Virus record (IMG/VR): IMGVR_UViG_3300003154_000003
Span: 1 to 52,295 of that record
DNA: 52,295 bases
Strand: one strand, 5' to 3'
Source: a virus
Shown here: positions 1 to 17,673 of the stretch, piece after piece
Layout of the letters: each line of letters starts with the position of its first letter
How positions within the stretch are numbered: the first letter of the stretch is position 1
Notes under the pieces: model-generated
Database searches by the model: none
What the model saw: only the letters and a program-made list of their open reading frames with translations
What the model was told of the DNA's origin: nothing
Position numbers and translations under genes: made by a program

Positions 1-22
1 AAATAATATTATTTTTCCCTAT
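1..22. repeat. Terminal direct repeat, identical to 52274-52295 (circular closure or terminal redundancy)
   Basis: aaataatattatttttccctat occurs at both window ends. The match cannot be followed further because the window stops there. Confidence 0.9.
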
Positions 23-68
23 AATATAATATATAGGGAAAATTTGGCTAAAATCTTCGAAAATATAT
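1..68. promoter_or_regulatory. Right part of the 80-bp concentric palindromic element L1 (origin-like); the left part is 52260-52295
   Basis: Inner arms are ttttccctat (13-22) and atagggaaaa (33-42). The outer arm tcttcgaaaatatat (54-68) is the reverse complement of 52260-52274. After joining the ends through the 22-nt overlap, both arm pairs share the symmetry centre 27.5. Confidence 0.6.
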
Positions 69-1900
69 TTTCCTTGTTTGAAAGTGAGTGCCTCTCTCAT
101 CATCTCTTCAAAGTCGCGGCATCGCTTTATTTCAGGACTTGTTATATTTTTTTCTGTAAATTCTAAACCTGTATCCTCAACTGTATAGTTTTCAGTAACC
201 TTTCGGCCGAAACCCCAAGCGGTAACCGCTTTACATTGTTTCTCATTGCAACCTATAGCAAAAACTAAAGAAGTTTCTTTGCCTCCGGGGTCCTTGACCC
301 TGCTCCATGCTTGCCATGTATCGCTATGGGTTGCCTCATCTCTTAAAGCGTCGCTTTCCTCTTTCGTTTCGCGGTATGCATCGAAAGCGTTAGCCGGTTT
401 TTCTGCGGCACCCACGGCAATCATAACCCGGCAAGAAGAAGAAACACCCATCATCGACGGCGCCTTATAATAGGTTACGGCGTGCGGGTGTTTGCAGTTC
501 TTAAGCCCGTCTTCTAATATTTTTGCTTCCCTTATCGAAAGTGTGATTATTACGCAATCCTCGTCTCCGTAGGTTTCTAAAATTTTTATGATTTTATATA
601 GTGTCTCCGTAGAGCGTTTATAAAAACTATTCTTACCCACGGATGAAAACTTTTTAGTATCAGCTAATATAAGCATTTTCTTATTGGTCTGCATCGGGTC
701 CCCACCATGTCCGAATAAAACATTTTTTATAACAGTTTTCGGCGCAAATAATCCATGATAGTCGTAACTACATATTGTTGCCGATGTTAAAAACATACGC
801 CTATCCTCTCGCTTTTGTGCTTTCTTCATAAATTTGCTTATCATGTCCGTAAACATTTTATCGACGGCCACAATAGAAACTTTTATTTCTCCATACTCCG
901 GCACCGCATGGATATTGATAAATTCCGATGACATTATAGCAAGCATTTTGTAAAGTTTTAATACCTCATCGAGTGATAAATCATATTTCCGCCTGACCAC
1001 GGTTAACTCTATCAACTCGTTATAAGTAGCCACGATTTCCCTTTCGGTAATATCGCTATAATTATTTTTAAAAGTCTTTGATAGCTTATGCTTAAAAAAT
1101 TCCCGGTCTTTGCTATCTAAATATACCATCATAACCCCGTTTTTTATTTCCCCCTCATCTAATAGCATCCCGTAATCTGCTATTATTTTACGCAGTTGTG
1201 GAAAGTCCTGTGTAATCCTTAGATAATTAGTAAGGTTAACCCACTTTGCCCCATCGGCCGCGGCATCATTGTAAACCACCATCCCCGCACCCCGGCCATA
1301 TTGTATTTCATGCACTTCATCAAAAATTATATTTTTAACACCCATTATCTTATTTAAAATCCTTTCGGCCGTGGTGTTCGGTCGGCTATGGGCTGCAAGC
1401 TGCAAAGCTACAAGTTTCTGATAAGTAATAACAATGCCCCGGTAATCGTTACAATGTAATATCTGTGTTACCGGACAGCTATAATAATGCTCGCAATCCG
1501 CGCACTTTTCGGCAAGTGGCAGTATAGGCAATTGTGCCAACTCGGGCCATTGGTGACACTTTTCTTCATTCAGTAAGCACCTATGATTTGAAGGTATGTG
1601 AATTATAACCCCGTCCGGGTTGTCCGAATACTTCCGCGCCTCTTTTATAATAGTATCGTCGGCAATCGCGTTAGTAGGCACAACGGCTAAAAATTTTTCT
1701 TTTCTGTTCATTGATTCCGCAATTAATGCGGTAGTAGCCCCGGCCCTTGTTGTTTTATAAGTACTCGCAATTCCACCCTTTATATTCTCATAGATAGACC
1801 ACGCCACTAATAACCGCGGGTCGCGCGTAATCTGACCTAATTCTATTTGAACCGTCTGTAATTGCCTCCTTATTACAGATGTACTGATAACTATATAAGC
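1..1900 (-). CDS. SF2 helicase, XPD/DinG-like with a Cys cluster; 5-prime part of an ORF that leaves the window at nt 1 and continues at 52273
   Basis: My own block-by-block translation shows the minus frame (codon starts = 1 mod 3) open from the TAA at 1903-1901 to nt 1. Motifs read: YKTTRAGATTAL (degenerate motif I), HRCLLNEEKC...EKCADCEHYYSCP (Cys cluster between motifs I and II), FDEVHE (motif II), LTSAT (motif III), WQAWSRVKD (motif VI-like). The start is unclear; the first canonical start is GTG at 1807. Confidence 0.7.
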
Positions 1901-4410: not shown

Positions 4411-4733
4411 CTGTTGCCCCCTTTCATATATTCACATTTGGCCTGATAGACCAAACCAGAAATATAAGCATAAATCATCAATTTTTCAAAAACCGTTGTT
4501 TCTTCATCTTTCAAAAGTTCTTTTATGGCTATGGTAACCGGGCCGCCCCGGATAATAAATTTATCAGCTAACCGCAACGCGTTATTTAAAACGTCGCCGA
4601 AAGCCCGGTCGGGCTGCACCATTCCCCGGATACTTTCAGTGTATCCCAAAGGATTCTTGGATGATGGCCATAAATAATTTGGCATGTCTGGCATTTCTAT
4701 AACCAGTACCTCATTATCTTTTAGCTTCCCCAT
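4407..4733 (-). CDS. hypothetical protein, 108 aa
   Basis: Track ORF on the coding strand. Confidence 0.5.
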   Translation of the reverse strand: MGKLKDNEVLVIEMPDMPNYLWPSSKNPLGYTESIRGMVQPDRAFGDVLNNALRLADKFIIRGGPVTIAIKELLKDEETTVFEKLMIYAYISGLVYQAKCEYMKGGNR

Positions 4734-4765
4734 ATTTAAAACATGGGTACCGGATTATATAAATC

Positions 4766-4984
4766 TTACGCGCCGAACAATTCTATATCATCGTGTGTAC
4801 TGGCTGTAAGTTTTCTTACAATGTAATCCATTGCGACTTTCGCTTCGCAGTATTCACCGGGGACCACTTCCAGCGGGCACCCACTGCACCCGGTTAGACT
4901 GCAAGCCATTGTGATTACTTGCAAAGCTTTATGTTTCTCGCTTCGGCTCATTAGGTCTATATCTTCCTTTGTTGGCATTTGCAT
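4766..4984 (-). CDS. hypothetical Cys-containing protein, 72 aa
   Basis: Track ORF 4766-5149, trimmed to the ATG at 4984 (MQMPTKEDIDL...). That ATG directly follows the stop of 4986-5285. The longer version overlaps that ORF by 164 nt. Confidence 0.45.
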   Translation of the reverse strand: MQMPTKEDIDLMSRSEKHKALQVITMACSLTGCSGCPLEVVPGEYCEAKVAMDYIVRKLTASTHDDIELFGA

Positions 4985-4985
4985 A

Positions 4986-5285
4986 CTATTTGTTCCCCCC
5001 GTCGTCGATATCATCCGGCATAACTGACATATCCCGGTATACTGCACTTTTGATAAGATAATAATTTTCAAACCGTGGCATCCATTTTTTACGGCTTCCG
5101 TTATCCGGCGCTTCCCCGAATATTTCCACATACATATGTTGCCCGGCACTGGCTCGGTTGATTGCCATAACTTGCGCTCTCTGTCTCCCGATTAATATAA
5201 CATCTCCTATATTAATCATGGAGCCGGGCACAATTTTAATGGTCGCCTCCGTCACATAGGAATACTTATATACTGGTTCCGTCAT
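4986..5285 (-). CDS. hypothetical protein, 99 aa
   Basis: Track ORF on the coding strand. Confidence 0.5.
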   Translation of the reverse strand: MTEPVYKYSYVTEATIKIVPGSMINIGDVILIGRQRAQVMAINRASAGQHMYVEIFGEAPDNGSRKKWMPRFENYYLIKSAVYRDMSVMPDDIDDGGNK

Positions 5286-5300
5286 GTTTTATTGCCCCCA

Positions 5301-5621
5301 TCACTTTTTAGCTGTTCGTTTTCCTTTAGTGGTATATATAGTTTTCTTCGGTTCCACCGGCGCCGGTTTTTGTTCGATAATCTCCCCGACTTTAAGGGTT
5401 TCATATGGTATAGGCGGATACTGTTTTAATCCGCAATCGTTGCGCTCGGTGTCCCACATCTGGCAAATTTCCTGCCGACATTTCGCAAAAGGTGAACGGA
5501 TAAAAGGACATTCTTTAACATCCCGTTCCAATCTGCCATGTACAAACTCCTTAAGCGTTTCGTTGTCGTCATCGTCCCCGGGATACTCGTCTGTAACCAT
5601 TCCCATAATTAACACTTCCAA
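5301..5621 (-). CDS. hypothetical Cys-rich protein, 106 aa
   Basis: Track ORF containing ECPFIRSPFAKCRQEICQMWDTERNDCG. Confidence 0.5.
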   Translation of the reverse strand: MEVLIMGMVTDEYPGDDDDNETLKEFVHGRLERDVKECPFIRSPFAKCRQEICQMWDTERNDCGLKQYPPIPYETLKVGEIIEQKPAPVEPKKTIYTTKGKRTAKK

Positions 5622-5833
5622 TTAAAGTTTATGTTGTCATCGTCGATTACTGCAACCCCGACGGTTAGCCGGTCGGCTATAAAGGCAAGCACGAAAAAGT
5701 CTGTCCCCTCTGGCAACATGACATAAATTAGATGTGTTCCTGTGGCAACCATTCCCCGGCCGTGGTCGTCGTCCTCATACTTAGCATCCCAATAAGATTG
5801 ATTATACTCTTCGTGTCTCTCAATTGTTATCAT
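5609..5833 (-). CDS. hypothetical protein, 74 aa
   Basis: Track ORF on the coding strand. Confidence 0.45.
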   Translation of the reverse strand: MITIERHEEYNQSYWDAKYEDDDHGRGMVATGTHLIYVMLPEGTDFFVLAFIADRLTVGVAVIDDDNINFNWKC

Positions 5834-5845
5834 CTGATTGCCTCC

Positions 5846-6073
5846 TTAAATAATTTCAAAAGAAATGTCCTCCATTCCCAAATCGCCTGTACCTTCCTTA
5901 AGGTCCTGCTGCTGTTCAACATACAGCATTATTTCCTCAAAAGTAATATCGGCTGTATAAAAACGATAAAATTCTTCATATAGTCTGGCAAGTTCGGTTT
6001 CCCCACATTTTTGTAATGTTGAAATGTGGTCTTCGACAACTTTGTTGTTAAGTTCTATGTCAACGTATAGCAT
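5846..6073 (-). CDS. hypothetical acidic protein, 75 aa
   Basis: Track ORF on the coding strand. Confidence 0.45.
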   Translation of the reverse strand: MLYVDIELNNKVVEDHISTLQKCGETELARLYEEFYRFYTADITFEEIMLYVEQQQDLKEGTGDLGMEDISFEII

Positions 6074-6100
6074 GGTTTAATTCCTTCTATGTAGCTAATG

Positions 6101-6295
6101 TTATATAATCCTTTTCCTTAGAACGCTTCCAAGCCTCAAAACGCCGGTGACTTCCTGCAATGGCTCATATATATAGAAGCGCCGCACCTCTCTATAAATC
6201 CTTAGTTCCTCGCTCATTCCGCACATGCTAAAAGCTTTTGTAGCATCTGCATAATACATAAAGTTTACAACGGTTTGCGCTGTTCTCATATCCAC
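6101..6295 (-). CDS. hypothetical protein, 64 aa
   Basis: Track ORF on the coding strand. Confidence 0.4.
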   Translation of the reverse strand: MDMRTAQTVVNFMYYADATKAFSMCGMSEELRIYREVRRFYIYEPLQEVTGVLRLGSVLRKRII

Positions 6296-6540
6296 CCCTC
6301 TAATGTAGTTTTAACCCCTACTTCTTTACATGCTGATTTAGGCACCCATGCACAAAGTCCGTCCGTAAATCGGAATAAGTGGGCTTTGTCTGTGCTATGC
6401 TCAATAGTTGCCACATGCCCGGTTATCCCCGTCCCATCAAATACCCACGATTCCACGGAATAATATTTTTTATGTTCAGTGTCGTGAATTTTTACACGGG
6501 CCGGGGCTTCATTTATTCGCCCCCTCTGGCATATCTTCAA
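6286..6540 (-). CDS. hypothetical protein, 84 aa (TTG start)
   Basis: Track ORF; GGGGTGGTG lies 5 nt upstream of the TTG. Confidence 0.4.
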   Translation of the reverse strand: MKICQRGRINEAPARVKIHDTEHKKYYSVESWVFDGTGITGHVATIEHSTDKAHLFRFTDGLCAWVPKSACKEVGVKTTLEGWI

Positions 6541-6679
6541 GCGGACACCACCCCGGGATTTTTAACCGGTCATCAATATAATTGTGCGTGACCCCACATT
6601 CACAATAATTTGACACGTTGCCCTTGATAAAATCCAAATACGGGCATTGCCCGCAACTTATAACTTTAATAATTTTCAT
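6509..6679 (-). CDS. small Cys-rich protein, 56 aa (Zn-ribbon-like)
   Basis: My own translation gives MKIIKVISCGQCPYLDFIKGNVSNYCECGVTHNYIDDRLKIPGWCPLEDMPEGANK. It is below the track size cutoff. Confidence 0.4.
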   Translation of the reverse strand: MKIIKVISCGQCPYLDFIKGNVSNYCECGVTHNYIDDRLKIPGWCPLEDMPEGANK

Positions 6680-6817
6680 TTATTTAGTACCCCCGCGTGA
6701 AATGATATCCTCGTTTAACATGTGATAAATTTTTTCAACATGTACCGGGTTGGCCAGTGTTATATTTTTTCTTATAAATACAATCATTGGCTCGTCATCT
6801 GATATAACCATTAACAT
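6680..6817 (-). CDS. hypothetical small protein, 45 aa
   Basis: Track ORF 6680-6874, trimmed to the ATG at 6817. That ATG is preceded by GGAGG and removes the overlap with the ArdC-like gene. Confidence 0.35.
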   Translation of the reverse strand: MLMVISDDEPMIVFIRKNITLANPVHVEKIYHMLNEDIISRGGTK

Positions 6818-6821
6818 ATTT

Positions 6822-7730
6822 TTATTCCTCCACGTTATCGGTTTCGTCGTCATCATCCTTAACGGTGCAAGCACCGCGGGTTATGTACTCCGCGGCCTTT
6901 GCAGCCCTTCCGGCAGCCCAAACGATAAGCTTCTTATCGTTCTGTAACTTTTCAAGCCACCCAACAATATAAGCGCTGTTTATATCGAAAGTTTCTTCGG
7001 CAATCTCCGCGCCCATCATACCAAGCAGTATAGACGCGCCCATTTCGGCTACAAGTTCTTCGCGGCTGTATGATTCACTTGCGAAAACGTGGTCATCGCC
7101 GTCTATTGCAAAACGGTTTAGACGCTTTGGATGTCCGGTGCTGTGGGTCATTTCGTGAAACATGGCACTATAATATAGTTCCGGCTTTTCGAACTTGTTT
7201 ATTTCCGGCACATTAACCTTGTCCAAAACCTCGCAGTAGTAAGCACCATCATCATAGTGTGTTACTTCCTTAAGTTCCTTAGAGTACAGTTCAACCACAT
7301 TTTCACATTCCTTAATAAGTTCATGCTTAACTGTGCTCTGCTTGCTCTCAATCCCTTCAACCTGCGAGATGTGGAACACATAGTAATATCTAAGCATTGG
7401 AATCCTGACAACTTCCGGGTTTCCATCCTTATCCTTCTTATCGGTCTTCTTTTCAAGCATCTTGAAGTATGTTATAAGGTGTCCGTGCTCTCCCTTCTTA
7501 ACACTTCCTCCGGCCTGCTGTGCCTGCTTGAATGTCATGTATTCGCCACCACCCGGCAGCATGAATAGATTGATACCATGATAAGGCTTTTGTGTAACCC
7601 AATTAACGGGCATACCTTCCGTCCATGTTCTGCGCCACGGTATAACGCCCGTTTCCAAAGCCTTAATCATTCTCTCAGTGACGATTTGGTAAACGTCTAC
7701 CGCCTTGTTGTTGTTGGTCTTTGTTGTCAT
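6822..7730 (-). CDS. ardC: ArdC-like protein: N-terminal ssDNA-binding domain plus C-terminal zincin metalloprotease
   Basis: The N-terminus reads VIPWRRTW...NWVTQKPYHGINLFML, which matches the ArdC/DUF1738 pattern. The C-terminal half contains the HExxH motif FHEMTHSTGH. AGGAGG lies upstream of the ATG. Confidence 0.6.
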   Translation of the reverse strand: MTTKTNNNKAVDVYQIVTERMIKALETGVIPWRRTWTEGMPVNWVTQKPYHGINLFMLPGGGEYMTFKQAQQAGGSVKKGEHGHLITYFKMLEKKTDKKDKDGNPEVVRIPMLRYYYVFHISQVEGIESKQSTVKHELIKECENVVELYSKELKEVTHYDDGAYYCEVLDKVNVPEINKFEKPELYYSAMFHEMTHSTGHPKRLNRFAIDGDDHVFASESYSREELVAEMGASILLGMMGAEIAEETFDINSAYIVGWLEKLQNDKKLIVWAAGRAAKAAEYITRGACTVKDDDDETDNVEE

Positions 7731-7785
7731 AATACTTTGCCTCCTATTCGTTAGTTAGTAGTATGCACGGCAAAGTATAAATAGT
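7731..7785 (-). promoter_or_regulatory. Promoter-like element B, copy 1 (upstream of the ArdC-like gene)
   Basis: The minus strand reads CTATTTATA-N7-GTGCATACTACTAACTAAC, then GGAGGCAAAG and the ATG. The same arrangement with the same N7 spacing occurs at 44651-44686. Confidence 0.5.
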
Positions 7786-7895
7786 TATCGTTTTTAAAAA
7801 AGTGTGATAGTTTACATATACATATTACCGTCGGGTCCGTCCACGACATTATAAGATAATTCCCCCTCGTCACCCTCTTCGACAATATCCGTCAT

Positions 7896-8153
7896 TTACT
7901 GTAAAGTTTCTATTAAAGTGGTCCCACATATTACAGCCCACGCAAAAGCCATAACGTCCCGGCGCTGGCCGAACTCTTCCATAACTTTACAAAATATTGT
8001 GAACTTGTCGTTTTCGACCATTAAAATATCGCCGATGAAGTCTAAAATTTCTTCAAAGTTGACCGGGGCTAATCCTTCCTGTATTATAGCCGGTTCGTCG
8101 GTCACATAAATATGTGGCTTTGGGGTTATTGCAAGGTTCTTTACAATGTGCAT
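7896..8153 (-). CDS. hypothetical protein, 85 aa (possible member of a small paralogue family)
   Basis: Track ORF. Its C-terminal EEFGQRRDVMAFAWAVICG resembles a motif in 8915-9271 and 9276-9692. Confidence 0.45.
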   Translation of the reverse strand: MHIVKNLAITPKPHIYVTDEPAIIQEGLAPVNFEEILDFIGDILMVENDKFTIFCKVMEEFGQRRDVMAFAWAVICGTTLIETLQ

Positions 8154-8449
8154 TTTCTCACTTCCTTTTTAGATATCCTAATTTGTTGACCATTTAAAGC
8201 CATGCCGCTTAAGATTCCTTCGGCGTAAAATTCCACCCGGGCCCCATATTTATCTTTATACTTATCGTTTATAGTTTTCAAAGTTTCCAGTTTTGAATCC
8301 CCATGCATAAAACCAAACATTATAATTTTCACAATGTCGCTTTCTACTTTGTCCCATTCCGGCGGATATCCGAAATTGATTTTATGCGTTTCGGAATCAT
8401 ACCCGAGTACCCGCCCGTCCTCTGTTTCGAAAACTTTTACAAATGTCAC
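8141..8449 (-). CDS. hypothetical protein, 102 aa
   Basis: Track ORF on the coding strand. Confidence 0.5.
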   Translation of the reverse strand: MTFVKVFETEDGRVLGYDSETHKINFGYPPEWDKVESDIVKIIMFGFMHGDSKLETLKTINDKYKDKYGARVEFYAEGILSGMALNGQQIRISKKEVRKCTL

Positions 8450-8501
8450 TCCATCGCCCGCCGTATTCGTTCCCTAAATGCATCTATGCGCCGCACCGTG
8501 T

Positions 8502-8888
8502 TTACTTGCGGCCCCCCGCTGATATTACTACGTTCCCCGTTTCCGTTTCCGAGTTCGTCACGGCTCCGGGGTCCGAGTTTATTTCTTTCATTATTTTCAA
8601 AAGTAGTTCATCGTGTAACTTTTGCGTTTCAATGTCATAGGATTTTAGTTTTTCTTCAATATATGATTCCTTTGTTTTAGCTGTTATCTGTGTCAGCATG
8701 TCTATTTTTGCTTCAATCTGTGCAAGCGTTGCCATTACTTCTTTTAAATCATTTGAAGTAAGCGTTTTGACTTCGGCGGCTATGTTATCGTATTCCTTCC
8801 CGGCGGCTATCCCGGCATCCTCCCGCTTAGTTTCCCGGGCCGCGGTCAACTGCCGCACCTGTTCAATATAGTCATTTATCGTTACCAT
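8502..8888 (-). CDS. hypothetical coiled-coil protein, 128 aa
   Basis: Track ORF with a heptad-like charged sequence. Confidence 0.5.
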   Translation of the reverse strand: MVTINDYIEQVRQLTAARETKREDAGIAAGKEYDNIAAEVKTLTSNDLKEVMATLAQIEAKIDMLTQITAKTKESYIEEKLKSYDIETQKLHDELLLKIMKEINSDPGAVTNSETETGNVVISAGGRK

Positions 8889-8914
8889 GTAACCACCTCA
8901 AAAAATTGATGGGG

Positions 8915-9271
8915 TTATTCCTCACCATCCGTGCTATTCATCAATTCAGCCAGCAGTTCACCAAAATTGCTTGGCTTTGGCTTGTACACCTTTTTCATGA
9001 AATCTTCCATACCGAAAAGGACAATTCCATATAGTACCCCATTGTCTCCGTGTATCTCATGAAGTTTTTTGAATATGTCAAAAAACCCCGCGATGTCTTC
9101 ACTTTCATGAAGCTTTGCATATGTTTTATGCACAGCCTCAATAAAGTGAATTTGTTTTATTCCACGGAAATTAAATGAACCGTCGTTCATTAGTTGTACA
9201 TATCCCCCGTCTTCCAATTCCACGCGGTCAACTTCTACCGCGTCGGATTTTTGTTCGGTTACTGTAGCCAT
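8915..9271 (-). CDS. hypothetical protein, 118 aa (paralogue of 9276-9692)
   Basis: Track ORF. It shares the pattern F-x6-H-x4-V...DI-x-K...GD-x-G-x2-Y-x-[IV]-[VL] with the adjacent ORF. Confidence 0.5.
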   Translation of the reverse strand: MATVTEQKSDAVEVDRVELEDGGYVQLMNDGSFNFRGIKQIHFIEAVHKTYAKLHESEDIAGFFDIFKKLHEIHGDNGVLYGIVLFGMEDFMKKVYKPKPSNFGELLAELMNSTDGEE

Positions 9272-9275
9272 TTCT

Positions 9276-9692
9276 TTACCCCCATACCTGCTTAGTTTCC
9301 ATCATTTCCTCTGCTTCGTCGTCCGGCTCATTACCGGATTTTTTGACCTCTCGTTTGGTAATTTCTTTTGCAAGTTCGGCTTCGATTTCTTCAATTGTTG
9401 GCATCGGTTGGCCTGTGATTGTCCGCATCATCATATTGTGTCGGGTGCTTTGTTCGACTTGGGCCCCCATGCAGATAAGAACCGCATAAGTCAACCCATC
9501 GTCTCCGAACTTGCCGGGAATTTCTTTAAGAATGTCTGAGTAGTCCATACCTGCCAGTTTTCTTATACCGATGTATGTAAGAACGCTCCGGGCAAGATGT
9601 GCCTTTGGCATCATGTGGAAATCTATTGTCAAATCGCTTATTTCAAGGTAATGCTCTTCGTCACCATAAAATAATTTAGTTGGTTCACTCAT
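9276..9692 (-). CDS. hypothetical protein, 138 aa (paralogue of 8915-9271), acidic tail
   Basis: Track ORF; carries the motif IPGKFGDDGLTYAVLICMG. Confidence 0.5.
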   Translation of the reverse strand: MSEPTKLFYGDEEHYLEISDLTIDFHMMPKAHLARSVLTYIGIRKLAGMDYSDILKEIPGKFGDDGLTYAVLICMGAQVEQSTRHNMMMRTITGQPMPTIEEIEAELAKEITKREVKKSGNEPDDEAEEMMETKQVWG

Positions 9693-9954
9693 TTGTTTCT
9701 GCCTCCATCTCGTTAATGCTTACGACTTTGAACGCTGACGCCTTAGATGCATTTAATGACGCGCCCGCGTGCAAGCCTAGCAACTTATCTATTTCTTTGA
9801 AGTCAAGCCCCTTAATATGATGCAAATAATAAATTATAGCTTGGTGTAAGCTAAGATTATATTGTGCATACGCTACCCTCAAAAATGAAGTGGGTATTTC
9901 AAAATCAACGGCTTCCTCCATACTATCACGTCTTAAATGTGTACTTCCTGCCAA
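9685..9954 (-). CDS. small HTH protein (sigma-70 region-4 / LuxR-like helix-turn-helix)
   Basis: Track ORF. LSLHQAIIYYLHHIKGLDFKEIDKLLGLHAGASLNASKASAFKV fits the region-4 HTH pattern. Confidence 0.4.
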   Translation of the reverse strand: MAGSTHLRRDSMEEAVDFEIPTSFLRVAYAQYNLSLHQAIIYYLHHIKGLDFKEIDKLLGLHAGASLNASKASAFKVVSINEMEAETNE

Positions 9955-10216
9955 TCCACATTTTATCTTGCTTTGCCATGTCCTGATTTATGCGCCTTAG
10001 TCTGTTTCCGGCGGCCTTTATGACTTCCTGAATCCTCATAAAGACTTCGGGCGGTTTTACTTCCCCGACCTTAAGAACCACATGGATATTATCATTTGTG
10101 ATAATAACCAATTCGTCCGGCACACCATCCACCATAAACACGGCGGGCGCTCCGCACTGCACATAGGCAACTGGCAACTTACTTAAAGGCAATGCTTTAA
10201 CGCTTATTACCTTCAT
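9926..10216 (-). CDS. hypothetical protein, 96 aa
   Basis: Track ORF; first sizeable gene after element A2. Confidence 0.5.
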   Translation of the reverse strand: MKVISVKALPLSKLPVAYVQCGAPAVFMVDGVPDELVIITNDNIHVVLKVGEVKPPEVFMRIQEVIKAAGNRLRRINQDMAKQDKMWIGRKYTFKT

Positions 10217-10353
10217 AGCAAAGTTTTTTTCTTCGTCTATTACATGTTCATACTGTACTTTTATTGTCGTTTCAATGCCCCCATTTTATTACATTTTGGG
10301 ATACTCTCTTTTAATACGCCGGATAATATAAACCTTTCTGTATGTCAACCAAC

Positions 10354-10425
10354 ATCATTTCAATTTAAAGCCACTTTTTAAGCCCGTGGAGAGGTCAGTA
10401 TATAAATGGTGGTGTATTCATATTA
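10354..10425 (-). promoter_or_regulatory. Conserved promoter/leader element A, copy 2
   Basis: Near-identical to A1 and A4. The minus strand has TTTATATA at 10406-10399. The conserved ATG at 10358 opens a 15-codon uORF (MMLVDIQKGLYYPAY). Confidence 0.6.
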
Positions 10426-10657
10426 AACCCCATGTGAAATTAGCACGGCGGGGCAAATCCGGCAAACCTGCACGGGCTAAAAGGGCCTGATATATCTAGC
10501 AAAAAAGCGCTTAATCCAAAGCATCTTATTTTAATATTTTATTTTTTATCTGAAAAATGTAATGTATGAGAATTTATTAAAATTTATTTGAGTCAGTAAA
10601 CGCATGAAGTTTTTATAAAAGATGGCATCCAACAGATAAAACAGTTTTCTTTTATTT

Positions 10658-10737
10658 TATATTTTCGAAGAAATATACAAAAAAGTCCCAATAATATAAA
10701 GTATATGGACAAATTAAACAATTTCTTCGAAAATATA
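10658..10737. repeat. 80-bp concentric palindromic element L2 (origin-like), paralogue of the junction element L1
   Basis: The perfect 17-bp arms TATATTTTCGAAGAAAT (10658-10674) and ATTTCTTCGAAAATATA (10721-10737) flank an imperfect inner dyad, gtcc..ggac (10685-10710), with the same centre (10697.5). An ungapped alignment to L1 gives 59 of 80 identities. The element lies in the most AT-rich intergenic stretch. Confidence 0.65.
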
Positions 10738-10892
10738 ATTATGTATTTATGAGCAATCAACAGATTAAAATAGGATAAAATCATTTATATGATTGCAAGT
10801 ATGAGGATATTATAATGATACCCCGGATTGTGGCCGGGGTGGAATAATATAGTTTCATGCTGCTATCTCAAATCTATAAATCCGTGGGTCTA

Positions 10893-10946
10893 ATATCGGC
10901 GGTGGGGTTTTTCCTCCTGTTTTCCCTAACGCCAAACCGCCGATAT
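10893..10946. terminator. Hairpin just downstream of the last tail gene (possible terminator)
   Basis: The arms atatcggcggt (10893-10903) and accgccgatat (10936-10946) form an 11-bp perfect stem with a 32-nt loop. On the plus strand it is followed by attttttatt. The long loop lowers confidence. Confidence 0.3.
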
Positions 10947-10955
10947 ATTTTTTAT

Positions 10956-12083
10956 TTAAGATATAAAATTCTGTTTTTGTGCCATCATTTGATTTTCTAT
11001 AAATGATAATATTTCGCCATATGTGGGTATATAGCTACCTAATTCCAGCCGGGTTTTATATCCGCTCTCGTCTATTTCATGCGTCACCCTATACACATAT
11101 AAGTTTGCTCCAAACGTATTACCATTGATAACCATCGACGGCACCTTACAATAAACCAAATCCCCGGCTTCGGCTTGCGTTGTCATTTCTAACGTGCATA
11201 CCCCGGATACTAAAGGCAATTGGTGTATATCGAATATAGAAGATGCAAGCCGGGCGCATAGTTCATTTGTTTCTATACTCCGGTCAATATCTAAAATGTC
11301 TTTGTCTCCTATGCCCCCCGTAACCCTTGCGTATTTTTGTACGGTTTCGTCATTACCGTATACGGTTACGGACCGGGCCATTTCTGTTACATCTACAATA
11401 AATTCAGAATCAACGTAGTTACGGGCACCCTCAACCACTTTATATTTATCGGTTGGGGTGGTCGGTAATGGTTGCCAGCTTGCGACGCAATCAACTAAAT
11501 TGTTATCAGCGTCATAAATAGGAATTGTTTTAAATGAGTATGTTAGAAGTTCCGCCTTTTCTAAAAACTTGATAACATCTTTAACATATTTAGTGTCTGC
11601 TTCAATGTTATAACTATCTAAAACTGTGCCGTTAGTGTCTATTAATGATGGATATTGCTCATGTATTCTATATAGTTCCGGCAGGATGGTTTTTAGAATT
11701 AGCCCGGTGCTGGCATCGGCAAACGAATAAGAATTTTTAATAAGTCTGTTGACCAATTCTACCCCGTGCCCGTGTGCCGTAATTGTTATCTGGTTGTCTG
11801 TTGCCTCGGATTTAGCACGCATTACTTTTATAATGCCGCTAAATATTTCACGCCATCTGTAAAGCCGGTTACGTGAATCTTCGTTTGCCTGAACCCGGAT
11901 AATATCGCCGGTCCTCATGCCACTTATAAAACTTTTCCCATCTATCCGGGCCCCGATTGTTAATGTTACTTCGGCGGTGTCTGCTTGCCACGGGAAAGTT
12001 TTTGTAATAGTTGCCCGGGATAACTTCGGGTAATATTTTTCATATGGGTAAACAGTATGCTGTGTTATTATTCTAAATTCCAT
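10956..12083 (-). CDS. distal tail / baseplate protein, 375 aa
   Basis: Track ORF; last gene of the tail module. GGGTGA lies upstream of the ATG. The call rests on position only. Confidence 0.45.
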   Translation of the reverse strand: MEFRIITQHTVYPYEKYYPKLSRATITKTFPWQADTAEVTLTIGARIDGKSFISGMRTGDIIRVQANEDSRNRLYRWREIFSGIIKVMRAKSEATDNQITITAHGHGVELVNRLIKNSYSFADASTGLILKTILPELYRIHEQYPSLIDTNGTVLDSYNIEADTKYVKDVIKFLEKAELLTYSFKTIPIYDADNNLVDCVASWQPLPTTPTDKYKVVEGARNYVDSEFIVDVTEMARSVTVYGNDETVQKYARVTGGIGDKDILDIDRSIETNELCARLASSIFDIHQLPLVSGVCTLEMTTQAEAGDLVYCKVPSMVINGNTFGANLYVYRVTHEIDESGYKTRLELGSYIPTYGEILSFIENQMMAQKQNFIS

Positions 12084-12087
12084 AACG

Positions 12088-14814
12088 TCACCCGAGTTTC
12101 CTTTCTCTGAATATCAACGACAGTGAAGCATCCGTATAAGTACCGCCGCTCTGTTCAAATGTCAAGGTATTAACACCATTGTTTAATTCCAACAGTTGAG
12201 CGCTTGATGTATCAAGTTCTATATTAAGAATCAAATCGTTTAATGCAGCACTTGAAACAATATCAGCGCTTATTTTTAACCATATCACGGTTTCGCCGTC
12301 ATATGTTACGCCATGCACGATAGATTCTAAGCTATAAGTATTTTCACCTGTTAATACTTCGTCGTCTATATCATACCACGCCGCCGGTTCCTGTAAATTC
12401 CCGGGGTCCATTGCTACCATTATCCGCGGGGTACCCTCGTATATGTCCATATCTAAAGTTAGCTGTGGGGTACCTATAACCGGGTAATAAGTCGGCACTT
12501 TGTAAATAATATATCCGTCGCTATCCAGTGTTAAACTTCCCGGTGAAACGGTATCAAGTGACACGTTATCAAATTCGTAAGCGTCGGCCCGCATCTTCCG
12601 GCTGGTGTATGGGTCCCGGTAATAATATGCTCCGGTACCATCGGCGTTTATTTCGACCTCCCCACCGACCAACATACATGAAACTAAATTTTCTTCAATT
12701 GTTGGTCTGTCATCGTTGATAATTGCCGCCCCGGAAACGTGTCCAAACCCTGTAAATTTTATGTATGGGTCTATCATAGGCACTTCATAATATACACTTC
12801 TTACGTGGTGGCTTGCTCCCTCTTCCCCGGTACACATTGAAAACTGAACGTCGCCGGTTGATGAAATTAAAGTCATTTCCATATAATAGTTTACTCCCGG
12901 GGCGAGTGGAATGCCCCGCACCCCGTCAAGCTGGCTATACATGTTTATACTGACTTCACCCACAACGTTTATATATATTGTTCCGTAGCCAATTATATTT
13001 TCGCGGTCTATGCTATCGAATATATAAATTCTATAGCTGCCGGGCAATGTCACCGACCGGACATATAAGCTGATAGTTTCGACGGAAACGGCTAACGGGT
13101 TATTAATGTTAAAAATGTATCCAAACGCTATGCTGTTTGTACAATTTCCTAGCTGCGTTTCTGCAATTCCGCCACTTTGTAAAGTTCCCTCGCCGTTCTT
13201 GGTGTTAAGTGTACCCCCACCCGTGCGCGGGTTATATGTGCATAGCTTAATACGTCCTGCACCACCGGCCCCGCCGTAGTAAGTAGACCCACCATAAGAA
13301 TAAGCATAGCCTGACCCACCGTTTGCAGTAATACCGGCCGGGGCAACAATGCTAATATCCTTTGCTGTTATTAGTATACCACCGCCGGACCCACTGCCTC
13401 CGCGATAACTACCGTATACGCTCCCGGTATCCCCATCTGCTTTTATACTGCCGGTGTTTGTAACTTCTATGGTTTCGGCTCTTAAGATAATGCACCCACC
13501 ACCGCGCCCACCTATGCCGCAAGTACTCTCTAAGTCAGTGTCCCCGGTAGCGCCGCCGCCGGACCCATGATAAATACCCGGTGAACCTGCCGGGGTGTCG
13601 TAAGTAGTACCGGCACTTGATGCATATAATATATGCCCGGGGTTTCCTACCCCACCATATCCACCGCCGCCGCCGCTATAACTTTCTAAACCTTTGCCTC
13701 CGCCCGGTCCGTCGGCGTTGGGATGGCTGACCCTGCCGCCCCAATACCCGGACCCATACGCGCCCAAAGTACCGGCAATTTTAATATGCTGCGCTCTGAT
13801 TTCGAGCGTGGTTAATTCTCCCATATATGATTCTAAGTCACCGGCTCCATACTGTAACATTGTTACACCGGCGGGGACAATAAAGTTTCTAATGTTATAA
13901 TGTAATCCGTTGGCATACATCCCGGCCGTGGCTACCCAATCTTGCCCGCCGTGGTCCCCGCCGCTTTCATTGGTCCATGCTACCCCGGATGTGTAGATAA
14001 TTGAACCCGAACCGGTTTTTGGATAATATGAAAAAACTTTGACACGGCCCATAGCACCCTTGCCGCCTTCATAAGTCACGCCGTTATAAGTGTAATTAAC
14101 ACCCGCGCCGCCGTCGGCTCTTATTATGCCCCCCTCATCTACATTAATATATGAGCATATTATAAGCACACCGCCGCCACTGCCAGCGCCGCCCTTATTG
14201 GTAGATGTTACCCCCCCATAAACCCACGTAAAGCCCGGCTCTCCATCGGCTGCTATTGCTCCGGTGCTCGAAACGTCAACACTTGTTGCTCTAATAATAA
14301 TACATCCACCGCCCCGGCCACCTCTTCCGGTTGCTTCCTCTGTACTGGCTGGCCCGGTAGCACCTCCACCACTTCCGAAATTAATATCCGTTCCGGCAAA
14401 TGTGCCGTAGGGTTGGCCAGCTAGTCCGGGGTATGAAACATAACCCGGCGTTCCTGTATATCCATAACCTCCGCCCGCACCGCTGTATGTAACCGCCAAA
14501 CCATGAGCCCCGCCCGGACCATCTGCGTTAAGGTGTCCATATCGGCCGCCGTGATATCCCGACCCATACGCAGCAAGCCAACCCCGGATTATAACAGTTT
14601 CCGCCCGTATTTCTAACTTCGTGCCCCCGCCCGCCAATGATGCACTGTCACTCATTCCACTTTGATAAACGGCGCGGTTGGTGTCCACGCAAAACGTGCC
14701 AATATTATAATGCAGCCCGTTAATATATTCATTATTTGCCGGATACCAATCATCTCCGCCGTGGTCCCCGCCGCCTTCGTTTGTCCATGTCATATTAAAC
14801 CCACCTATCGACAC
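12088..14814 (-). CDS. glycine-rich tail tip / fibre protein with an internal tandem duplication, 908 aa
   Basis: Track ORF. Two modules of about 270 aa start WTNEGGGDHGGDDW and WTNESGGDHGGQDW. They share LEIRA...AYGSGY.GGR...NADGPGG...GSGGGATG...GRGGRGGGCII.RA...ADG. The position after the tape measure and Dit-like genes supports a tail role. Confidence 0.55.
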   Translation of the reverse strand: MSIGGFNMTWTNEGGGDHGGDDWYPANNEYINGLHYNIGTFCVDTNRAVYQSGMSDSASLAGGGTKLEIRAETVIIRGWLAAYGSGYHGGRYGHLNADGPGGAHGLAVTYSGAGGGYGYTGTPGYVSYPGLAGQPYGTFAGTDINFGSGGGATGPASTEEATGRGGRGGGCIIIRATSVDVSSTGAIAADGEPGFTWVYGGVTSTNKGGAGSGGGVLIICSYINVDEGGIIRADGGAGVNYTYNGVTYEGGKGAMGRVKVFSYYPKTGSGSIIYTSGVAWTNESGGDHGGQDWVATAGMYANGLHYNIRNFIVPAGVTMLQYGAGDLESYMGELTTLEIRAQHIKIAGTLGAYGSGYWGGRVSHPNADGPGGGKGLESYSGGGGGYGGVGNPGHILYASSAGTTYDTPAGSPGIYHGSGGGATGDTDLESTCGIGGRGGGCIILRAETIEVTNTGSIKADGDTGSVYGSYRGGSGSGGGILITAKDISIVAPAGITANGGSGYAYSYGGSTYYGGAGGAGRIKLCTYNPRTGGGTLNTKNGEGTLQSGGIAETQLGNCTNSIAFGYIFNINNPLAVSVETISLYVRSVTLPGSYRIYIFDSIDRENIIGYGTIYINVVGEVSINMYSQLDGVRGIPLAPGVNYYMEMTLISSTGDVQFSMCTGEEGASHHVRSVYYEVPMIDPYIKFTGFGHVSGAAIINDDRPTIEENLVSCMLVGGEVEINADGTGAYYYRDPYTSRKMRADAYEFDNVSLDTVSPGSLTLDSDGYIIYKVPTYYPVIGTPQLTLDMDIYEGTPRIMVAMDPGNLQEPAAWYDIDDEVLTGENTYSLESIVHGVTYDGETVIWLKISADIVSSAALNDLILNIELDTSSAQLLELNNGVNTLTFEQSGGTYTDASLSLIFRERKLG

Positions 14815-15448
14815 GCTTATATATTATAGCGCTGCTTTCGCTCGATGTTAGCAATATATCAACTAATGCCCCCGACTCGCTGGCTGTTATTATGCTTCGT
14901 CCGTCCTCATCTTCGGATATACTCATCGGGTTATCATCGATATAAATATCATACTGTGATTCATTAATCGAATATCTAAAGGGTGTTTCAGATACTAGTC
15001 GAACGGTCCACGGGAAAGATGTTAAAAAGCCTATATCCTCTTCCGGTGTGATTTCTTCCAATTTGACTTTATATATCCACCCTTCATGGAATACAAAATC
15101 ATTAACCTGTTCCCGGGCAAATTCATTTAATACGGCTTGCCTCTGTGCTTCCGTGCGCTCTACCCCGGAAACGTGTAAGGTCATTACATCCCAACCCATC
15201 GGTCTAATAACATTAAAATTGCTTCCCGGGGTTTTTGTTTTCGACTGCACATAACTTAATACAGTTCCAAAATTCGTTACATTACATTCAATGCCGTTTA
15301 TTGTTGCTTTCGGTGGGACTGTATATTGACCCTGTAAATTAATTACAAGTGCTGATTGTGGTGTAAATCCCCGGGTAGCAATAAGCATATCCAAAATATC
15401 GGTGTCGGTTTGAATCCCGCCCCCCGCTATAGCCATGTAGTTAATCAT
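14795..15448 (-). CDS. distal tail protein (Dit-like), 217 aa
   Basis: Track ORF immediately after the tape measure gene and overlapping it by 4 nt. The call rests on synteny. Confidence 0.45.
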   Translation of the reverse strand: MINYMAIAGGGIQTDTDILDMLIATRGFTPQSALVINLQGQYTVPPKATINGIECNVTNFGTVLSYVQSKTKTPGSNFNVIRPMGWDVMTLHVSGVERTEAQRQAVLNEFAREQVNDFVFHEGWIYKVKLEEITPEEDIGFLTSFPWTVRLVSETPFRYSINESQYDIYIDDNPMSISEDEDGRSIITASESGALVDILLTSSESSAIIYKRVDRWV

Positions 15449-17673
15449 TGTCTAACACTTCCCGAACTTTTAGCACCAACCGCCGTAATAACTGACTTGC
15501 TAAAATCATAACTAATGCGCTTAACGTCGCCGGAATTGTTTATACTGCCAACGTTTACCGTCTGATTAACCTCAACCTTTCGGGCATCGGATGAATGTTT
15601 CGCGGCAGCACTTGCGTATATTGTGCCTGTATAGCTTGGATTGTATGACCCGGACCGGATTAAATCGCTCTCTAGTTTCATTTCGTCAATTGTCTGCTTC
15701 CGGGCCGTACTGTTTGCAGCTATAGCGGAAGTATTAGAATTGACCGATTCGGTTAACGCGCTGTTAATATCCGCAAGTAAGTTTGTAGCGTTGGCTTGCC
15801 CGGTTGCGTAGCTGGCCCAATTTGCAAGCGACCCGGTGGCACTTTCTGCTAATGATGCTGTTTGTTCTGCTGTCCTCGGTGTTGTTAGATAACTAAAGAA
15901 GCTTGCCGCTTGCTGTCTCGCTTTCGTGAAATCGGCATTAAGTGTTAATGTGGGTATATTTATACCGAATAGAGCGCCCAAACTGCTTACCGCTTTTGAA
16001 ATGCTATCAACCGTATTTAAAACCGTTGATACTATACCAAAGAACCACTTTGTAACGTTTGTATATACCCATTTGGCAACTTCTACAATTTCGTCTAATT
16101 GACGCCATGCTACTATAGCGGCCCCAATAGGTCCAATAAGCAATAAAGTAGTGTCGGATAAACTGTTTATCCAACCCATTAAACTATTAATAGCATCCGG
16201 TACTTTGACCTTTAACCAATCGTATAAATTGCCTAGTATCATAGTTAAATAGCTGACGGTTTCCGAAACTACCCCGTACCGTTTTTCTAATGCATATAGT
16301 ACTAATATGACTGCCGCAATTGCACCCACTATTAAAAGATATGGAGCCAATGCAGCCCACGACGTCCTGGCCCAAATAAGCTGTAACCCGGACAGCGCTT
16401 TTATACCGGTTGCTATCGGGCCTATCATCATTAAGATAGGTCCTATAGCAGCGCCAACGGCCAATAGCGCAACAACTCCTATCTGTATCGGTGCGGGCAA
16501 GTCTGCGAAAGCCTGACCAATTGCAATAATAGCCGGGGCAATCTGTTCTTTAAATATTGGCAGAAGGGTGTCTCTAAGCAACGGGACAACAATGTCTTTA
16601 AGCATAGGAAGAAAAGCATTTCCTATCTCTGTCGTGACGGCTGCGAAACTCGTTTTCATTTCATTAAGGCTTTGCTTTGCCGTTGCTCCCATTCTTTCGT
16701 AAGCTTGAGCGGCCGCGCCCTCTGCGTTGTTCATATCTTCAATAGCTTTTGCAGTTGTGGCCGAATTTTTACCCATTAATTCTGTAACAGCTGCCGCGGC
16801 TTCTGAACTGCTGAAATATGCATTTAAAGACTGTCCGGTTTTTTTGGAATCATCTTCTATAAGTTTCAATGCCTGTTGAAGTGTTCCCCCGCTTGCTATG
16901 AAATTTTTAAATGTTGTGCCTGAAAGTTCTTCGAATTTTTTCCCGGCTTGCTGTGTGGTATCGCCCAACTCTATAAACATTCTTTCTAGTTGTGTAGCGG
17001 CTACGGTTGTCGGGATACCTTGCATAGTTATTGCCGCAAGTGACCCGGCGACGTCTTCAAACCTTACACCCAACGCGGCGGCAACCGGGTTAACTTTATA
17101 AAGGCTTTGTGACATCTCTTCGAATGTTGTAGCACCAAATGCCGCGGCTTTGAACATGACGTCGCTTGCTCTCTGCACGGTTATAACATCTTTACCGTAT
17201 GCGTTGACCACTTGGGATAAACCTTTTACAACTGTATTTAAGTCAACGACTCCGCCTATAGATGCTTGGCTCGCGGTTTCCATAAAAGTAAATACATTGT
17301 CCTGACTAATTCCCGCGCTTAATGCGTCGTATAATGCCGGTGCTATCTCATCTGTAAAAATTCCATATTTGGCAGACAATGCGAGCACATCATCCGACAT
17401 GTCTTTCATGGCCGTGTCTGAAATGCCGGGCAACATCGTAAAAACCCGGCTCATATTATCTTCAAAAGTCACGGCCTGATTTGTCATAAGTCCGAGGGCA
17501 CCCGCCGCGGCAGTAATTGGCACGGTTAAACCCATCGTTAACCCGGTGCCTATGGTGGACGCCTTAGATGAAAAGTTGTCTATTGCTCTCCACTCTTTAT
17601 CTATATCGTCGGATAATGTCGATTTCAAACCGAACATTACAAAAATTTCGCCTAATATTTCCGCGGCTCCCAT
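15445..17673 (-). CDS. tail tape measure protein, 742 aa
   Basis: The TP901-type core pattern is visible (LSAKYGIFTDEIAPALYDALSAGI...ASIGGVVDLNTVVKGLSQVVNAYG). There are central hydrophobic segments and Ala/Ser-rich helices. The gene sits after the chaperone genes. Confidence 0.85.
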   Translation of the reverse strand: MGAAEILGEIFVMFGLKSTLSDDIDKEWRAIDNFSSKASTIGTGLTMGLTVPITAAAGALGLMTNQAVTFEDNMSRVFTMLPGISDTAMKDMSDDVLALSAKYGIFTDEIAPALYDALSAGISQDNVFTFMETASQASIGGVVDLNTVVKGLSQVVNAYGKDVITVQRASDVMFKAAAFGATTFEEMSQSLYKVNPVAAALGVRFEDVAGSLAAITMQGIPTTVAATQLERMFIELGDTTQQAGKKFEELSGTTFKNFIASGGTLQQALKLIEDDSKKTGQSLNAYFSSSEAAAAVTELMGKNSATTAKAIEDMNNAEGAAAQAYERMGATAKQSLNEMKTSFAAVTTEIGNAFLPMLKDIVVPLLRDTLLPIFKEQIAPAIIAIGQAFADLPAPIQIGVVALLAVGAAIGPILMMIGPIATGIKALSGLQLIWARTSWAALAPYLLIVGAIAAVILVLYALEKRYGVVSETVSYLTMILGNLYDWLKVKVPDAINSLMGWINSLSDTTLLLIGPIGAAIVAWRQLDEIVEVAKWVYTNVTKWFFGIVSTVLNTVDSISKAVSSLGALFGINIPTLTLNADFTKARQQAASFFSYLTTPRTAEQTASLAESATGSLANWASYATGQANATNLLADINSALTESVNSNTSAIAANSTARKQTIDEMKLESDLIRSGSYNPSYTGTIYASAAAKHSSDARKVEVNQTVNVGSINNSGDVKRISYDFSKSVITAVGAKSSGSVRQ

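Follow-up and report, generated by a model that had tools for sequence, protein, structure and literature searches.

Unwinding and priming are combined in one replication polypeptide in ORF904 of pRN1, the alpha protein of phage P4, gp4 of phage T7 and the fusions of PrimPol with superfamily 3 (SF3) or MCM helicases. The helicase-primase fusions of mobile elements have been surveyed by Kazlauskas et al. 2018 (PMC5862659). The DNA analysed here (hereafter the window) is a stretch of 52,295 nucleotides from a virus, positions 1 to 52,295 of the IMG/VR record IMGVR_UViG_3300003154_000003. Its two ends almost certainly split one gene for a fused helicase-primase replication protein of about 923-950 codons, and the DNA encoding the linker between the two domains holds a palindrome that is weighed below as a candidate replication origin. 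The predicted protein resembles the fusions of other mobile elements in that unwinding and priming domains lie in one polypeptide of a virus or plasmid; it differs in its reversed domain order, with the helicase N-terminal, and in an XPD-like helicase of superfamily 2 (SF2) in place of SF3, SF4 or MCM. An XPD/DinG-PrimPol architecture is absent from the text of the survey (PMC5862659), from the full-length matches in BFVD and from the literature searched, and in the viral structure library DinG-like helicases and TOTE-type primases occur only as separate proteins.

The first 22 nucleotides of the window (AAATAATATTATTTTTCCCTAT, encoding IGKNNII on the minus strand) are identical to nt 52274-52295 and form its longest terminal overlap; with one of the two copies removed, the circle measures 52,273 bp. 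The minus-strand frame runs without a stop from 1900 to 1 and, after the join, onward from 52273 to 51309, i.e. through 954 codons, with the stop codon at 51309-51311. The 5' part of this single frame (1-1900, minus strand) comprises the helicase domain and most of the linker, is covered by homologues and runs off the left end of the window, and the 3' part (51309-52295, minus strand), in frame after the 22-nt join, comprises the end of the linker, the primase-polymerase (Prim-Pol) domain and a C-terminal helical domain. An ATA codon starts at nt 22, and the in-frame TTG at 52151 lies 48 codons downstream. The overlap, the open frame and this arithmetic had all been given in a first-pass annotation of the window, and direct comparison agrees with each of them. 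The list of open reading frames (ORFs) shows only a 280-aa ORF initiated at the TTG (51309-52151) for the joined gene; the helicase half is missing from it, as the same annotation had remarked, because ORFs running off the window are not listed.

At the junction, the peptide FPIYYIIGKNNIISSKIYNRCNFLQLLIAREDAYAL aligns without a gap to the closest homologues, with which the window shares the pattern PIYYxIG...ELL..NRxDxYAxQ. The geometry of the palindrome points the same way: with this join the inner arms (13-23 and 32-42) and the outer arms (52260-52274 and 54-68) share one centre at nt 27.5, and in the other copy of the palindrome (10657-10738) the outermost pairs likewise stand 40 nt from the centre and the overall span is again 82 nt, so that the palindrome does provide the independent support for the junction that had been claimed for it. 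The continuous frame, the gap-free alignment and the palindrome geometry are three independent grounds for holding that no bases were lost or gained; the join of the two ends is, as judged from the sequence, exact. Identical ends whose joining yields a biologically coherent sequence are what a circular or terminally redundant genome presents, and the window is best explained as the whole genome, or as a contig that is circularly closed or has redundant termini, linearised inside the gene. Related contigs carry no terminal repeats, hence no small circular replicon was found among them.

The joined protein, used as a query, has 106 relatives, among them dozens of undivided proteins of 940-965 aa, which cover 97-100% of the joined protein at 40-55% identity and derive from Methanosarcinaceae genomes, metagenomes and viral contigs. 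Because full-length homologues span the junction, the two halves are read as one polypeptide and not as two genes, which upholds the central proposal of the first-pass annotation. The length of about 940-950 aa that it had put forward agrees with the homologues and remains slightly uncertain, as the only canonical start, GTG at 1807, gives 923 aa. The two halves also separate in a structure search (Foldseek), the N-terminal part leading to XPD/DinG and the C-terminal part to the CRISPR-associated Prim-Pol (CAPP). An AlphaFold2 model of the joined protein, built on an alignment of 88 sequences, has a predicted local distance difference test (pLDDT) score of 89.4 and a predicted template modelling score (pTM) of 0.74, with weak stretches only at residues 581-600 and 813-830. 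Scans of IMG/VR and INPHARED with the single protein gave just a 24-residue match and Gordonia phage primases; the full-length viral relatives surfaced only when the query was an alignment. Three paralogous helicase-primase genes (L004, L008 and L016; L numbers denote related loci) lie on one 3.37-Mb contig of a Methanolobus metagenome-assembled genome (NZ_CAXXKW010000002.1).

Two separate genes would be the reading if the 22-nt identity were an artefact of assembly or had come about by chance in AT-rich palindromic sequence, with additional sequence holding a stop and a start codon between the two ends. The overlap is indeed short (22 nt), AT-rich and partly self-complementary, and some database matches are helicase-only or shorter (e.g. 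P0090, P0094 and P0103, about 510 aa). Yet the closest full-length homologues have neither insertion nor deletion at the junction, the N-terminal ~37 residues of the Prim-Pol domain are missing from the TTG ORF, no start codon is conserved at the TTG position, and the palindrome geometry, whose overall span matches the second copy, is restored by this join alone. Two genes are thus very improbable indeed.

The true start of the joined gene is less clear than its extent. Before helicase motif I the sole canonical start (ATG, GTG or TTG) is the GTG at 1805-1807 (minus strand), which is probably not the start in use, since homology with the relatives reaches ~17 codons beyond it, up to about nt 1861. 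The conserved N-terminal sequence DPRLL.A..IYE continues up to a TTA codon that aligns with the start methionine of the homologues (alignment A1), and 3 nt upstream of this TTA stands AGGAGG (1865-1870, minus strand), a putative Shine-Dalgarno-like site. The closest relative (L073, 9914-10036) likewise has no ATG, GTG or TTG upstream of its conserved N-terminus and carries CTG at the TTA position, so a non-canonical start may be used in both.

The N-terminal ~575 residues (85-1807, minus strand, in the numbering of the 923-aa protein) make up an XPD/DinG-like SF2 helicase domain. In Foldseek searches against the PDB, XPD, DinG, Rad3 and CasDinG rank on top (E 5e-12 to 1e-9, TMt 0.41-0.50), the best fold match being XPD 9p55 (E 4.7e-12). 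Pfam recognises a weak ResIII match (25 bits, residues 25-180) and DEAD at 12 bits; no helicase match at the sequence level was obtained in the PDB sequence search or in the Pfam XPD/DinG families. Motif I (1730-1756, minus strand) reads KTTRAGATT and is an atypical Walker A: KTTRAG(A/C)TT is shared by the window and almost every one of the 88 homologues aligned (alignment A2), KTTRAG.TT being nearly invariant in A1 and A2, whereas the canonical GxGK[ST] is missing, its lysine replaced by Ala or Cys with a conserved Lys/Arg just upstream. Between motifs I and II, four cysteines (C77, C102, C105 and C111; 1475-1579, minus strand) are invariant in the 88 sequences of A2, at the place where XPD/DinG helicases carry their iron-sulphur (Fe-S) cluster, and form a candidate Fe-S or metal site. 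Motif II (Walker B) is DEVH at 1310-1321 (minus strand), with D163, E164 and H166 invariant, and the alignments further contain TSAT (motif III) and Q..SR (motif VI). The domain thus shares with the Fe-S helicases XPD, Rad3 and DinG of SF2 the overall fold (E ~5e-12), DEVH, TSAT and Q..SR, with four conserved cysteines between motifs I and II as candidate counterparts of the Fe-S ligands; it differs from them in the want of a sequence-level match, the lysine-free KTTRAG(A/C)TT and moderate TM-scores of 0.45-0.50. XPD, Rad3 and DinG are, moreover, known as repair or CRISPR helicases, not as partners fused to a primase.

Residues ~605-810 (51651-52268, minus strand) form an archaeo-eukaryotic primase (AEP)-type primase-polymerase domain according to Pfam, a profile match to CAPP and Foldseek. 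The Pfam family AEP-TOTE (PF22548) matches residues 637-783 with 85.7 bits (cut-off 27, E 4.8e-24), and the profile of the 88 homologues matches the structure of the Marinitoga CAPP Prim-Pol (7nqd) with E 7.6e-30. Foldseek aligns the primase part to 7p9j with TMt 0.72-0.73, a root-mean-square deviation of 1.9-2.9 Å and 27-28% identity, as befits an AEP fold, and pLDDT is ~90 in this domain. Both AEP motifs, DxD with its histidine and SGxxxxH, are present as CFDIDAH and SGSPFSYHIW; the catalytic D-I-D-A-H is encoded at 52056-52070 (minus strand), and D671, D673, H675, S715, G716 and H722 are nearly invariant among the homologues. By these motifs and profiles, the domain is assigned to the AEP superfamily and, within it, to the CAPP/TOTE-type clade. 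The CAPP alignment begins at CNFLQLLIAREDAYALQ, ~37 residues upstream of the TTG, for which reason the 280-aa ORF represents a truncated primase domain; its TTG (52149-52151, minus strand) is an internal Leu codon, and no Met or start is conserved there in the homologues. Behind the Prim-Pol domain, the predicted secondary structure of the AlphaFold2 model shows an all-helical C-terminal domain (residues 835-923; 51312-51578, minus strand).

The homology to the Marinitoga CAPP and to AEP-TOTE extends to the Prim-Pol domain with its DxD..H and SGxxxxH motifs. The window differs from both in that CRISPR and TPR/OB/TBP contexts are missing, in that the Prim-Pol lies C-terminal to a helicase and in its score of 101 bits against the NCBIfam CAPP model, below the cut-off of 200. 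TOTE systems are defined by TPR, OB and TBP partners (PMC12458937), and no TPR, OB/cold-shock or TBP genes were found among the 11 flanking ORFs of the window or in the gene tables of two relatives (L079 and L080). Membership in a TOTE system was accordingly rejected, and the database name "TOTE conflict system primase domain" reflects domain homology alone.

Proteins recognised in the window, whose large ORFs all lie on the minus strand, include the large subunit of terminase, a head protein of the Mu-F type, a tape measure protein and a 1,307-aa disaggregatase-repeat protein. Genomic homologues of the fused protein occur almost exclusively in Methanolobus, Methanosarcina or Methanococcoides, and in L079 and L080 the gene has small early genes for neighbours and precedes the terminase by only a few genes (~2 kb). 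From the virion genes, the hosts of the homologues and this neighbourhood, the window is assigned to a tailed virus of Methanosarcinales with the gene in its replication module. The 1,307-aa protein (35062-38985, minus strand), probably a tail fibre or depolymerase, combines beta-helix and disaggregatase-related domains typical of Methanosarcina, which supports the host assignment.

A replicative role of the fused protein is likely. A part in conflict, defence or counter-defence would accord with its closest domain families, AEP-TOTE, CAPP and the PrimPol domain of DRT UG10, with the occurrence of DinG-like helicases in type IV CRISPR systems and with the Walker A, which is atypical for a replicative helicase. 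It is nevertheless an unlikely reading: TPR, OB, TBP and cas genes are all missing from the flanking ORFs and the L079/L080 tables, the NCBIfam score stays under its cut-off, tailed viruses and proviruses carry the gene in their early/replication module, and no other helicase, primase or polymerase was recognised among the ORFs scanned, in a scan of the window that was not exhaustive. Taken together, a single gene for a replicative helicase-primase, cut by the ends of a closed contig, is very probably the best explanation of the window and the gene.

The palindrome of the gene copy consists of a left part at 52260-52295 (outer left arm 52260-52274, spacer and most of the inner left arm) and a remainder at 1-68 (inner arms 13-23 and 32-42, loop 24-31, outer right arm 54-68). 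It spans ~82 bp, with outer arms of 15-18 bp, spacers of 10-11 nt, inner arms of 11 bp (TTTTCCCTATA / TATAGGGAAAA, encoding FPIYYIIGK) and an AT-only centre. Folded as DNA it reaches -19.2 kcal/mol (z = -6.5), and palindromes of the family folded as single-stranded DNA have z-scores of -6 to -10. The encoded linker residues 581-600 have a pLDDT of 54-56 and are predicted to be flexible.

The homologues carry the palindrome at the same place with different arm sequences, and the variants are many, e.g. CAAATCTCCTTAT / ATAAGGAGATTTG in L002 (encoding NLLITYSIRRFD) or AAACCGCTTATA / TATAAGCGGTTT in L008 (encoding KPLIYYIISGL). It is present between helicase and primase anchors in ~55/58 loci, including the distant homologues L018 and L072; no palindrome was found in L004, L017, L038 and L051. 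The palindrome of L004 is degenerate and may mark a decaying provirus. In 42/47 distinct full-length genes no other short-loop inverted repeat in the entire 2.8 kb is as strong as the element, which always lies at a relative position of 0.62-0.66. Its build is constant throughout the family: perfect inner arms of 8-14 bp, an AT-only centre and outer arms of 8-20 bp on the same axis, separated by spacers of ~8-10 nt which are not complementary and are conserved in length. Mean GC is ~0.29-0.31 at the centre of the palindrome against ~0.42 in the gene.

In an alignment of 34 distinct sequences, 80.7% of the cells are paired against 58.5% in shuffles (37-51% in slid controls), and the covariation score of 0.538 (0.181 in shuffles) was reached by none of 500 shuffles. 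Both sides have changed in 14/14 outer and 10/13 inner pairs. Since the palindrome is kept while its arm sequences differ and covary, the conserved peptide motif of the linker is regarded as a by-product of a constraint on the nucleic acid, and the palindrome is, in our judgement, quite probably a selected cis element acting at the DNA level. Two loci (L033:3227-3313 and L075:7639-7718) have an iteron-like, in-frame tandem duplication of the palindrome's left half within the gene.

The second two-part copy of the window (10657-10738) has perfect 18-nt outer arms that match those of the gene copy and a diverged inner part (z = -6.6). It sits in a 740-bp non-coding region, poor in ORFs and rich in AT, that separates the last late gene from the first early ones. 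L073, the closest viral relative (55% identity), possesses an orthologous intergenic copy; its arms have a sequence of their own (TTCATCTGAAATTT), which both copies of L073 share. Arms alike within each genome but different from one genome to the next point to a sequence-specific, co-evolving factor that acts on DNA, and a bare hairpin or mRNA structure would not explain them; gene conversion between the two copies is also a possible source of the matching arms.

An RNA hairpin in the mRNA, serving e.g. ribosome pausing between the domains or mRNA stability, would account for a stable hairpin exactly at a domain boundary and for covariation that keeps the pairing. Against it, arm mismatches are chiefly transversions or antisense-type transitions with no excess of sense-strand G:U pairs, the non-coding second copy shows the same genome-specific arms, and the spacers are conserved in length yet not complementary. 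Such a hairpin is therefore quite improbable as the reason for the element.

The intergenic region of the second copy (10217-10955) contains direct repeats on either side of the palindrome, GCATCCAACAGATAAAA at 10625-10641 and GCAATCAACAGATTAAA at 10753-10769, as well as GC-rich hairpins at ~10811-10849 and ~10893-10946, and a block at 10353-10391 is conserved between the window and L073. An Rfam scan of the 740-bp region returned nothing. Adjoining the second palindrome of L073, the intergenic stretch L073:3714-3735 reads GTTTCCACTGGAAAC followed by CCCCGG and has no counterpart in the window; we take GTTTCCACTGGAAAC to resemble an archaeal origin recognition box. The pattern of this box does not occur above chance in the window.

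Replication elements comparable to the palindrome are known from other viruses. In phage lambda, ori lies inside gene O, as an AT-rich symmetric element in the region that codes for the inter-domain linker, so that origin and initiator stay linked; it consists of four direct iterons and an AT-rich tract. The window is alike in its AT-rich symmetric cis element within the linker-coding region of a replication protein and differs in that a single ~82-bp two-part palindrome is present, and as a candidate origin only. The origins oriS and oriL of herpes simplex virus (HSV) and the core origins of SV40 and papillomavirus are palindromes with an AT-rich centre and inverted recognition sites for a helicase-type origin-binding protein, with hairpin formation possible; UL9 of HSV is an SF2 helicase. 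To these systems, including the pairing of oriS/oriL with UL9, the likeness is the palindrome with its AT-rich centre and is only analogical, as they involve unrelated proteins, intergenic sites and eukaryotic hosts.

By analogy with these systems, the palindrome may be a replication origin, a function to which we give a little less than an even chance. This reading is favoured because the palindrome travels with the replication gene across the family and because it is AT-rich and symmetric like helicase-loading origins, with lambda ori as a precedent; an AT-rich cis element conserved with the gene in the linker-coding part of a replication protein is also what an origin within an initiator gene would look like. 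In the mechanism proposed, the helicase part would unwind the viral DNA and, as in other helicase-primase fusions, the tethered primase-polymerase would prime the exposed strand. The palindrome would be a cis site recognised by an element-encoded factor and the origin itself, kept inside the gene of its own replication protein, and the intergenic copy, which precedes the early genes, would be another such site. Tentatively, and somewhat short of an even chance, tailed viruses and proviruses of Methanosarcinales might therefore replicate with a previously undescribed initiator, an XPD/DinG-like helicase-Prim-Pol, from an origin formed by the ~82-bp palindrome in its own linker-coding DNA; this DNA element would dictate the linker peptide (PIYYxIG, LLIxxxIRR), and its arms would co-evolve in each virus lineage, in some viruses together with an intergenic copy. 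Neither the replication of Methanosarcinales viruses nor a conserved covarying linker palindrome is described in the literature searched.

Transcriptional control is the likeliest alternative to an origin: the palindrome as operator of a virus repressor, archaeal TATA-type promoter or terminator/attenuator, with one copy at the late/early boundary and one in the replication gene. In the window and L073 the intergenic copy does directly follow the last late gene and precede the early genes, the centre of the palindrome is TATA-like, many copies run from an A-tract through a stem to a T-tract like bidirectional terminators, and the concerted changes of the arms would fit a co-evolving repressor. 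The copy conserved throughout the family is, however, the one in the replication gene and not the intergenic one, no start codon is conserved after the palindrome, the sense strand of the window has no T-run behind the hairpin, and termination in mid-gene would leave transcripts that lack a stop codon. Transcriptional control is on these grounds rather unlikely, and an internal promoter for a separate primase was rejected for want of the conserved start codon.

The probability that a random break falls within the 82-bp element is 0.0016; the break of the contig in the palindrome is hence not put down to chance. Cleavage sites are often partly symmetric. The palindrome could accordingly mark real genome ends, i.e. 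a cos/pac cleavage or telomere-resolution site, with the 22 nt as a filled-in cohesive end or short terminal repeat and a gene restored only on circularisation; the location of the gene ~2 kb upstream of the terminase gene in two relatives would suit this. In the window the terminase gene is ~19 kb away, though, chromosomally integrated homologues keep gene and palindrome intact, and no fetched related contig ends at this site. The centre of the overlap (11.5) lies off both symmetry axes (7.5 and 27.5), a weak argument against symmetric cos cleavage. An AT-rich hairpin may, moreover, cause loss of coverage and a break in the assembly, which would equally account for the position of the ends. 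Genome ends at the palindrome are consequently improbable, and coverage loss or assembly failure at the hairpin stands beside real DNA ends or nicks as a possible cause of the break. De Bruijn collapse of the inverted arms was judged an unlikely cause, the arms being only 11-18 nt long.

Several observations count against the account of a closed genome with a helicase-primase initiator and an origin in its linker-coding DNA. GC and AT skew stay negative along the entire window without a switch and give no pointer to an origin. Extra copies of a lineage's own arms, looked for in 25 loci with long flanks, were found only in the window and L073, apart from the half-site duplications in L033 and L075. 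A partial-Mantel test of protein segments against arms gave a strong signal only at the palindrome-encoded peptide, which is trivial, and a weak one (r ~0.3) over the primase half, which is not interpretable. Operator, promoter, terminator and packaging site are roles that the palindrome could have just as well, and its coincidence with the contig break could mean real DNA ends. A helicase without the canonical Walker A lysine is not assured of ATPase activity, the start codon is ambiguous between GTG 1807 and the homology upstream of it, and we infer circularity from 22 nt and from homology.

The splitting of a gene by contig linearisation is ordinary, and the databases already contain homologues, most of them without a name or labelled only after the TOTE primase domain. 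The family-wide covarying palindrome, its second copy in the genome and the XPD/DinG-like nature of the helicase go beyond the first-pass annotation. When the arbitrary ends of a circular contig fall inside a gene, that gene goes uncalled, and here its 3' piece is mis-called as a short "primase" ORF, so that the replication protein would be missed or misread. The replication of methanogen viruses is almost uncharacterised; position and covariation make the palindrome a concrete candidate for a viral origin or another key cis site in ~60 related elements, and a clear case of a nucleic-acid constraint that shapes the sequence of a protein linker.

A tRNA scan of the whole window found none. Two multidomain proteins are encoded at 27894-29369 and 6822-7730 (both minus strand). 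In one protein the Mu-F-like head protein is fused to a zeta-toxin/kinase-like P-loop domain; another combines an ArdC-N anti-restriction domain with a zincin metallopeptidase. In L080 (Methanolobus sediminis CP133592, ~4700-16200) the homologous gene lies in a ~12-kb island adjoining BREX (BrxL) genes. Besides an S49-type protease, an IstB-like ATPase, a ParB-methyltransferase and the large terminase, no other virion genes were recognised in this island, which may be a satellite or a provirus remnant.

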